IMG/VR virus record: IMGVR_UViG_2667528065_000004
Reading direction: 5' to 3' (one strand)
DNA length: 11,218 bases
Source: a virus
Lineage: Duplodnaviria; Heunggongvirae; Uroviricota; Caudoviricetes
Positions 2,440 through 3,393 of the stretch are shown here, one piece after another. Numbering within the stretch: the stretch's first letter is position 1; each line of letters starts with the position of its first letter. The notes under the pieces were generated by a model. It was not told the DNA's origin. It saw only the letters and a program-made list of their open reading frames with translations, and searched no databases. The position numbers and the translations under genes were made by a program.

Positions 2440-3393
2440 GTGAATGCCATAATGGATGCGGGCAACAATTCGGAAACCAATGATATGAAGTTCAGGATAG
2501 TATACGACGGTCCGGCACTGGAAACGCATGAAATGAACGTGCGAGACCTTGCTCCTGCCCTTCTATCACTATCAGATGCATTAGAGGAAGCCGGTAAAAC
2601 TCTCTACGGAAACAAGACTGTTGTTTCTGTAAAAGTCAATGCATCATTTAAAGCTGGCTCATTTGGAATAGATCTGGTTGCCTCATCTACATCTTGGTTC
2701 AAACAGGCTGTTGATTTTTTATCCGGCGATTCAGCAACAGCCGCTGCGAATTTGATTGCTTTTATTGGACTCTGTCCTGGTTCTAAAGAAAAAATATGCA
2801 AAGGCCTAATTCAACTGATAAAATGGATAGGTCCAAGGAAAATAAAAAAATTACACAATTTGCCTGATAGCAACATCGAAGTCTTTGTTGATGACGAAAG
2901 CGAGATCTACGACAGTAACGTTATTGAACTTTATAAAAATATTAAACTTCGCTCTTCATTACAAGAAGTTATAAGTAAGCCATTAGAGCAGGAAGGCATT
3001 GACAGCTTTGCCTCTACTGTCGATGATGGTTTGACATTCATGACGATCAACAAGCAAGAAGCACATTATTTCAAAGTCAATCTACCAGCAGAATCAATAA
3101 TTTCAGAGTACACAGTAGAGAAAGCCCTTCAAATTAAAAATATTTCCTTCAATGAAGGAAGCCGGTGGCGGTTTTCTGATGGTGCCAGTAGCTTTTTGGC
3201 TGAAATAAAAGACCAGAAATTCATCAGCGATATTGATAACAACACCTTAAATTTTTCTAAAGGTGATATGTTACTTGTAGATTTAAAAGTAACTCAATAT
3301 ATGATCGGAGATGCCATAAAAACCATATTCGAAATTGAGCATGTAAAAAAACAGTTGAATCCTCAAAGGCAAATAGATCTTCCATTCGAATAA
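2440..3393 (+). CDS. Hypothetical protein, AT-rich accessory gene in the rexAB position downstream of cI; function unknown
   Basis: Intact 317-aa ORF starting 61 bp after the cI stop on the same strand and followed by a terminator. Visibly lower GC than neighbours. No Walker A, HTH or nuclease motif that I can recognise. Start could be 2440 or 2452. Confidence 0.7.
   Translation: MNAIMDAGNNSETNDMKFRIVYDGPALETHEMNVRDLAPALLSLSDALEEAGKTLYGNKTVVSVKVNASFKAGSFGIDLVASSTSWFKQAVDFLSGDSATAAANLIAFIGLCPGSKEKICKGLIQLIKWIGPRKIKKLHNLPDSNIEVFVDDESEIYDSNVIELYKNIKLRSSLQEVISKPLEQEGIDSFASTVDDGLTFMTINKQEAHYFKVNLPAESIISEYTVEKALQIKNISFNEGSRWRFSDGASSFLAEIKDQKFISDIDNNTLNFSKGDMLLVDLKVTQYMIGDAIKTIFEIEHVKKQLNPQRQIDLPFE

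Follow-up and report, generated by a model that had tools for sequence, protein, structure and literature searches.

A repressor-linked cargo cassette in the rexAB position of an Escherichia coli lambdoid prophage carries a candidate phage-exclusion gene

The stretch of DNA analysed here (the window) is 11,218 nt long, belongs to IMG/VR virus record IMGVR_UViG_2667528065_000004, and is the left arm of an Escherichia coli lambdoid prophage adjoining icd. The gene in question, called the target below, lies between the CI-like repressor gene and the early-left genes. A new result of this analysis is that the target is a discrete, dispensable and horizontally exchanged cargo cassette. Several of its relatives keep their linkage to a repressor gene across unrelated prophages with unrelated repressors. 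It is plausible, not proven, that the target is a lysogen-expressed, non-enzymatic, single-protein phage-exclusion or abortive-infection factor, and a role of this kind is the reading toward which we lean slightly. A first-pass annotation of the window had proposed the gene as an undescribed candidate for prophage defence or superinfection exclusion. That reading was right in substance and overstated the novelty.

The target as a cargo cassette

The repressor operon consists of the following parts.

1686..2378, plus strand: CI-like repressor with HTH_3 and Peptidase_S24 domains (Pfam), first gene of the operon; the PGAP start is also 1686
2379..3392, plus strand: cargo cassette, missing or swapped in sibling prophages; a 73-nt spacer with a Shine-Dalgarno sequence, followed by the open reading frame (ORF)
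2452..3393, alternative GTG start at 2440, plus strand: target gene, 313 amino acids (aa), WP_000338655.1, member of PDC-S42, NF053583 (LAPAL) and PHROG 3243
3398..3426, plus strand: intrinsic terminator of the cI operon, a backbone element common to all slot variants; hairpin 3398-3417 followed by a U tract

The target is a real gene, as seen from its 60 of 60 co-linearly aligned homologues and from the 2,829 sequence clusters that match it. The ORF listing gives it as 2440-3393 on the plus strand with a GTG start and 317 aa, and RefSeq/PGAP begins the same frame at the ATG at 2452, which yields the 313-aa protein. A Shine-Dalgarno sequence, AGGTG at 2438-2442, stands 9 nt ahead of this ATG and overlaps the GTG, so the ATG at 2452 is the likelier start. 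The 317-aa frame of the first-pass annotation is therefore kept and its length shortened.

To see what occupies the interval in other prophages, positions 1686-4080 were searched against 5,426 complete E. coli genomes, 2,252 of which match part of the query. The target is present in 34 of the 5,426 at 99% identity or more, always in the arrangement cI, gene, kil. The slot contents were read from an evenly spaced, not random, sample of the ranking, in which 29 rows have both flanks.

Empty, span about 1,494 bp: 12 of 29 rows
353-aa protein and ASCH protein (PADLOC PDC-M11 A and B): 6 of 29 rows
Panacea/SocA-domain protein and small partner: 2 of 29 rows
BamE-like lipoprotein: 2 of 29 rows
DUF6932 protein and 310-aa protein (PDC-M63 A and B): 1 of 29 rows
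DUF7946 and DUF7947 protein: 1 of 29 rows
Target gene: 1 of 29 rows
Other hypotheticals or differently annotated cargo: 4 of 29 rows

At least seven alternative cargos, or no cargo, are thus found between the same cI and kil flanks, and the copies of cI beside every slot variant are 96-97% identical. Most of the co-occupants are defence candidates or toxin-antitoxin-like pairs. When the window is aligned by BLASTN with the empty, Panacea and ASCH variants, homology stops at 2378 (2374 in one) and restarts at 3392/3393. This makes 2379-3392 the mobile unit and leaves the terminator to the backbone. Any cargo placed in the slot would join the repressor transcription unit.

The composition of the target agrees with this picture. 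GC content is 37.7% in the target and averages 46.7% over the window (sd 3.9%, 954-bp windows), and the lowest-GC 954-bp segment of the window begins at 2661. At third codon positions the GC fraction is 0.34 in the target, 0.49 in cI and 0.56-0.60 in bet and exo. The AT-richness noticed in the first-pass annotation was real, and it is accounted for by a mobile cassette with exact junctions. Horizontal acquisition, which the annotation had suggested from composition, is borne out by these junctions and by the sibling prophages that hold other cargo or an empty slot.

Two further records bear on the mobility of the module. In strain 2013C-3264 (NZ_CP027544.1) the same cI-gene module is found in a prophage at another site, adjoining torI and dsdC, where the window has int and icd. 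The identical module at differing integration sites indicates modular exchange between lambdoid prophages. The cI-slot-kil backbone with the Panacea-domain pair is also carried on a 44.8-kb circular record, NZ_CP172337.1. This record is annotated as plasmid pCE-O153H30-A and is probably the circular genome of a phage or else a phage-plasmid.

Linkage to repressors

The gene order in the window is ydaT/cII-like (745-1284, minus strand), cro/YdaS-like (1354-1584, minus strand), cI on the plus strand, the target, kil, gam, bet and exo. Further early-left genes follow, then int (8090-9232) and icd on the minus strand. This is the lambda map mirrored, and the target therefore occupies exactly the place of rexA/rexB. 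The first-pass annotation had placed it in that position, directly downstream of the repressor and on the same strand, and both statements hold: the target lies between cI and pL, in the repressor operon, and the gap between cI and the target is 73 nt, counted to the start at 2452. Neither a terminator nor a promoter is predicted in this gap, and the two genes are probably co-transcribed. The annotation had also seen a terminator closing the gene before a pL-like promoter. The terminator is strong (hairpin 3398-3417, -17.3 kcal/mol, z = -4.9, none of 200 shuffles equally stable) and stands ahead of the pL-like region, but it is part of the backbone and not of the target's own module.

The linkage extends well beyond this prophage. 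In several genera, homologues of 39-60% identity come immediately after a prophage repressor gene and run in the same direction. They follow a 155-aa repressor in an E. coli Rac-like prophage, a 130-aa HTH-only (helix-turn-helix) repressor in Salmonella, and different S24 repressors in two different prophages of Pseudomonas savastanoi. In Halopseudomonas a homologue also comes directly after the prophage repressor. The Acinetobacter homologue has a BstA gene two genes away. In IMG/VR, 203 contigs carry a relative, and the best 80 loci gave 39 representatives at less than 85% identity. A co-directional ORF ends within about 600 nt upstream in 38 of the 39. Among these loci, derived from the best 80, that ORF has a Peptidase_S24 domain in 14 of 38 and an HTH_3 domain in 13 of 38; the overlap of the two sets is not reported. 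A repressor is roughly one gene in sixty, which gives a chance expectation of about 1 in 60, and by this rough reckoning the enrichment of repressors upstream of family members is large.

A second conserved position is seen in Mu-like IMG/VR contigs (L081, L084, L094 and L098), where the family gene lies at about 3500-4420. At 1567-2835 of L084, beside the family member, there is a Mu F-like head protein with a C-terminal PBECR2 domain (Barnase/EndoU/ColicinE5-D/RelE-like nuclease; E 1e-17).

The regulatory regions on either side of the operon and the nearest flanking genes are given below.

1354..1584, minus strand: cro-like gene (YdaS/P22_Cro HTH), divergent from cI; Pfam YdaS_toxin, E 4e-17; RefSeq HTH protein
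1585..1685, no strand: OR/pRM-pR intergenic region with ACAAC/GTTGT half-sites and a palindrome at 1623-1647, placed by half-site density
3525..3620, plus strand: putative OL/pL-like region with eight half-sites; -35 TTGACA at 3569-3574, 17-nt spacer, TTAAAT at 3592-3597
3870..4076, plus strand: kil, first annotated early-left gene, followed by gam, bet and exo; PHROG 294, RefSeq

The pentamers ACAAC/GTTGT reach their highest density in the window at 3525-3615, with 8 sites; a second cluster, of 5 sites, lies at 1586-1695, and there is no third. The OR region holds an exact GTTGTT-N7-AACAAC at 1626-1644. The perfect -35 TTGACA at 3569-3574 lies about 150 nt past the terminator, within the OL half-site cluster. 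Two pentamer clusters, one of them holding TTGACA, are good evidence that 3525-3615 and 1586-1695 are OL and OR. A consensus promoter scan did not call the pL-like promoter at 3569-3597.

An N-like antiterminator ORF is missing from window positions 3600-3870, the stretch from the OL/pL-like region to kil. The leader of about 270 nt before kil has a perfect 10-nt inverted repeat, 3602-3611 with 3644-3653.

Family membership and earlier predictions

The target belongs to a family that several catalogues already hold. It matches PADLOC PDC-S42 (PDLC05015) with E 3.4e-86, residues 15-316 on model positions 3-300 of 302, and 60 of 60 target relatives match the same model. In NCBIfam it is a member of NF053583, the 'LAPAL motif-containing putative phage structural protein' family, at 270.4 bits against a cut-off of 60. 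The motif itself, DLAPALLSL, is at residues 32-40 of the 313-aa protein. PHROG 3243 is matched with E 1e-116 and has the function label unknown. The target is therefore a bona fide single-gene, DLAPAL-bearing member of these families, with no structural difference from them, although the catalogue names PDC-S42 and NF053583 imply differing roles, a defence candidate in one and a structural protein in the other. Together with the supplement of a 2026 paper in Science, described below, these entries mean that the family was catalogued and that the word undescribed in the first-pass annotation does not stand.

A phmmer search against 1.84 billion representatives gave 2,829 clusters (50% identity) at E<=1e-3, nearly all of them stand-alone proteins of about 300 aa. 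The family spans Proteobacteria to Firmicutes and Bifidobacterium phages. A word-indexed search returned only the name 'hypothetical protein', from Enterobacterales, Pseudomonas, Burkholderia, Acinetobacter and others. In every context examined the neighbours vary and, the repressor excepted, there is no conserved partner gene. Among 50,697 phage records, only Lactobacillus phage A2, Listeria phage 188 and Bifidobacterium phage PMBT6 gave a match. All three are temperate and infect Gram-positive hosts, and they carry the gene in lysogeny, integrase or attP-side accessory-gene (moron) positions; no virulent phage genome among these records has a family member.

No known catalytic domain is found in the target. 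Pfam gave no significant match, and the absence of an ATPase, HTH, nuclease or RT (reverse transcriptase) motif stated in the first-pass annotation agrees with this. Insignificant Pfam matches of the target and 60 relatives (EACC1, Hint_2, gp10_D3 and others) were not used. A sequence-profile search of the PDB gave a best E of 0.13, to an unrelated protein. The annotation was likewise right that the protein does not resemble RexA: Pfam, PADLOC and PHROG match only the target's own family, no full-length PDB fold is matched, and no sequence or fold similarity to RexA/RexB was detected in these searches.

Candidate-defence calls on the target have been made twice, and the two are independent and agree. 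One is the PADLOC family PDC-S42. The other is DefensePredictor (DeWeirdt, Mahoney, Laub, Science 2026, PMC13092281), in which Table S5 lists WP_000338655.1 as a 'Predicted novel defense gene' with a log-odds of 6.42 against a cut-off of 4, and Table S10 lists a partial copy of the target with a log-odds of 8.92. The position of the gene is also known from validated systems. The interval between cI and N has been cited as a mosaic hotspot, with rexAB there in lambda, and Owen et al. 2021 found bstA downstream of cI, an architecture shared by many homologues (PMC8585504). A RexAB-type system has also been demonstrated in P. putida, where it follows a CI-like repressor (PMC12894663). The defence candidacy proposed in the first-pass annotation is thus backed by two published pipelines and by a slot that holds the validated rexAB and bstA.

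A position in the cI operon would fit any lysogen-expressed function, and the target could be accessory cargo unrelated to defence, acting on the lysis-lysogeny decision (as proposed for RexA), on host physiology or virulence, or to the benefit of lytic growth. There are precedents, in that bstA was first tied to virulence phenotypes (PMC8585504) and RexA modulates the lysis-lysogeny switch (PMC12894663). Members of the family in Mu-like late and early operons also suggest some use in lytic development. This explanation has to contend with the two defence-prediction methods that flag the target, with slot co-occupants that are mostly defence candidates or toxin-antitoxin-like, with the BstA neighbour in Acinetobacter, and with an acidic protein that has no DNA-binding HTH domain. 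We consider it distinctly unlikely.

Predicted structure

AlphaFold2, run on a 57-sequence alignment, gave a model with a pLDDT (predicted local distance difference test) of 83 and a pTM (predicted template modelling score) of 0.66. It has four parts.

2485..2691, plus strand, aa 12-80: N-terminal alpha/beta (beta-alpha-beta-beta) domain with YDGPAL...DLAPAL
2692..2835, plus strand, aa 81-128: hydrophobic Gly-rich hairpin of two short helices, then a basic K-W-x-G-R-K patch; pLDDT 50-84, low confidence
2836..3087, plus strand, aa 129-212: variable middle alpha/beta domain; pLDDT above 90, lowest conservation
3088..3360, plus strand, aa 213-303: C-terminal OB fold, b1-b2-b3-a-b4-b5; conserved R238-W239, D243-G244, D254, F257, K270 and D272

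Conservation is highest in the N-terminal domain, which is 57% identical to distant members where the other parts reach 31-34%; this domain is also common to DUF7946. The hairpin has a net charge of +2. The invariant residues are G, P, F, W, D and K, which is not a catalytic set.

The OB fold raises the question of whether the protein acts in the cytoplasm. P2 Tin acts on T4 gp32 and is a precedent for poisoning phage replication. By analogy, the OB fold of the target could bind a phage single-strand-binding, recombination or replication protein, or single-stranded DNA (ssDNA), and poison phage DNA replication without any action at the membrane. The fold is canonical and its best structural matches are RPA, SSB, PriB, RMI1 and Rfa1 N-OB, which include protein-binding OB folds (RMI1, Rfa1 N-OB), and the aromatic or basic OB residues R/K238, W239, F257 and K270 are conserved. 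The topology b1-b2-b3-a-b4-b5 of SSB, RPA and PriB is likewise that of the target. However, the target has no SSB Pfam match, no sequence relationship to SSB families and no basic surface; its OB domain is acidic, with a net charge of -3 (family median -4), for which reason ssDNA binding by the fold was down-weighted. Such a mechanism also leaves the conserved hydrophobic hairpin and the strongly conserved N-terminal domain unexplained. A purely cytoplasmic defence is, in our judgement, unlikely.

Comparison with named systems

A positional parallel is RexA/RexB of lambda, together with the RexAB-type system of P. putida. The slot is identical, after cI and before pL, and expression of the target in lysogens is expected. 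The RexAB logic of a sensor and a membrane effector is conceivable for the target. RexAB is, however, a pair of genes, whereas the target cassette has one ORF, whose product lacks both a multi-pass membrane partner and a clear transmembrane helix. BstA of Salmonella BTP1 (PMC8585504) is, like the target, a single prophage gene directly after the repressor, with its own terminator, and is widespread in Gram-negative prophages. Its KilA-N and BstA_C domains were not found in the target by Pfam, there is no homology between the two, and no self-immunity element resembling anti-BstA (aba) was identified for the target. DS-34 of DefensePredictor is a validated E. coli prophage cargo that was cloned with its CI repressor gene (PMC13092281). 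Its cargo is unlike the target, being an AbiZ-like protein with a coiled coil and a transmembrane segment.

A relationship by sequence is seen with the DUF7946 and DUF7947 protein (WP_053289290.1, 287 aa), which occupies the same slot between cI and the terminator in the same E. coli prophage backbone. Profile comparison by hhalign (probability 92%, E 6e-7, 267 columns) identifies it as a full-length remote homologue. The two share the N-terminal Y-D-G...H-E motif, and the AlphaFold2 model of the DUF7946/7947 protein has an OB-like C-terminus. The target is below Pfam significance for DUF7946 and DUF7947, 15 of 60 relatives have weak N-terminal matches (best E 0.002), and where the target has an alpha/beta middle region the DUF7946 model has a helical one. 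On these profile comparisons the target is a remote homologue of DUF7946/DUF7947 and not a member.

DUF6575, which is named among the domains of validated PD systems (Vassallo et al. 2022, PMC9519451), is a lead and not an established relationship. A Foldseek search of BFVD matched a viral DUF6575 protein with E 2e-8 over 310 columns, but with a TM-score of 0.36. A published HHblits table aligns target residues 11-75 with positions 132-187 of DUF6575 at a probability of 56%, and hmmscan gave no match. A further Foldseek match in BFVD was a 184-aa protein of mycobacteriophage Pipsqueaks.

Other features of the window

A PADLOC scan of the remaining window ORFs gave no further defence candidates. 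One of them, a 250-aa ORF at 6073-6825 in the early-left region, is a RefSeq hypothetical protein with no PADLOC match. Rfam, run on the window and on 3380-3900, gave only a CRISPR-DR16 match of E 0.5, which is chance.

Short tandem duplications at 9819-9865, 9900-9977 and about 9990-10030 (22 bp x2.1, 36 bp x2.2 and one more) break the icd gene (9428-10700, minus strand) into three ORFs. They occur in none of the 5,426 complete E. coli genomes, against which a 401-nt query aligns to 307 nt, in three segments. Either the assembly is at fault here or icd is a genuine pseudogene next to the prophage.

Proposed function

As an exclusion factor, the target would be made together with CI, from pRM in lysogens and from pRE during establishment, with transcription halting at the backbone terminator, and it would guard the lysogen from infection by other phages. 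Sensing would fall to the variable middle domain together with the OB fold, which would bind a ligand derived from the phage; given the acidity of the OB domain, this ligand is likelier to be a protein than naked ssDNA. The conserved N-terminal LAPAL domain and the adjacent Gly-rich hairpin would then act as the effector, for instance by associating with and depolarising the membrane or by oligomerising. The outcome would resemble RexA plus RexB in one chain. Within a defence or exclusion role, which we hold to be a little better than an even prospect, membrane-linked mechanisms and cytoplasmic poisoning are given roughly equal weight.

Several findings weigh against an exclusion factor of this kind. 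The target is not among the 94 transcription units that were tested by DefensePredictor, the family motifs are missing from the tested sequences, and 45% of the tested predictions were confirmed (PMC13092281). PDC-M63AB, a fellow occupant of the slot, had no phenotype in one study in the native host (PMC12409345). A literature search found no experimental test for the family, and PDC-S42, 'LAPAL motif', DUF7946 and phrog_3243 were unmentioned in it. No effector domain is recognisable in the target. Simple nucleic-acid binding is made less likely by its globular domains, all of which are acidic. The membrane is also a difficulty. The first-pass annotation had proposed a membrane-associated segment at SATAAANLIAFIGLCPGS, and the hydrophobic stretch is present, but its maximum 19-residue Kyte-Doolittle value is 1.31, below the usual threshold of 1.6 for a transmembrane helix. 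A transmembrane reading of this segment was rejected for the target on that value; it may hold for the family, since 29 of 60 relatives attain 1.6 or more there, up to 2.07. The comparison was drawn with membrane superinfection-exclusion proteins of the SieA, SieB, Imm or gp15 type, for which a signal peptide, a lipobox or transmembrane helices are expected: on hydropathy the target falls short of such a helix, and those 29 relatives do not.

The remaining points concern the position of relatives and the name 'putative phage structural protein' that NCBIfam gives the family. In 4 of 38 non-redundant viral loci, which are Mu-like, the gene is inside a co-directional head-gene operon with short gaps (portal, MuF, G, X, protease I, major head T), between G and I, and this position may lie behind the 'structural' name. 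In one Mu-like prophage the family gene precedes mor, in the early region. Expression confined to lysogens is therefore not a general rule of the family.

Could the target then be a virion structural or morphogenesis protein? The four Mu-like contigs are distinct, and in Lactobacillus phage A2 the family member follows the lysis genes on the late strand, which together with the NCBIfam name would fit such a role. The target itself is in the repressor operon, upstream of pL, and it is not needed to build this virion, because sibling prophages of the same backbone have no copy or have unrelated genes in its place. The family is absent from all virulent phage genomes searched, and no known structural fold was matched beyond the generic OB fold. 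A structural role is highly improbable.

A broader proposal, that LAPAL/PDC-S42 and DUF7946/7947, perhaps with DUF6575, form a large superfamily of one-chain, non-enzymatic immune sensors placed on the repressor promoter of temperate phages, is tentative and we rate it as doubtful. Such proteins would sense a conserved phage protein through the OB and middle domains and would kill or arrest the cell through the N-terminal domain and hairpin at the membrane, as a functional analogue of RexAB in one polypeptide, with a new fold and a new mode of activation.

Conclusions

The candidate-defence status of the target was already published, and its practical value is modest until a phenotype is available. 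What is documented here, at base-pair junctions, is that the interval between the cI stop codon and the terminator in the E. coli lambdoid backbone is a plug-in slot, and this slot could be mined systematically for lysogen-expressed immunity genes. If the target defends, it would add a widespread single-protein system, with more than 2,800 clusters at 50% identity and no enzyme domain, and a combination of folds unseen in characterised defences.

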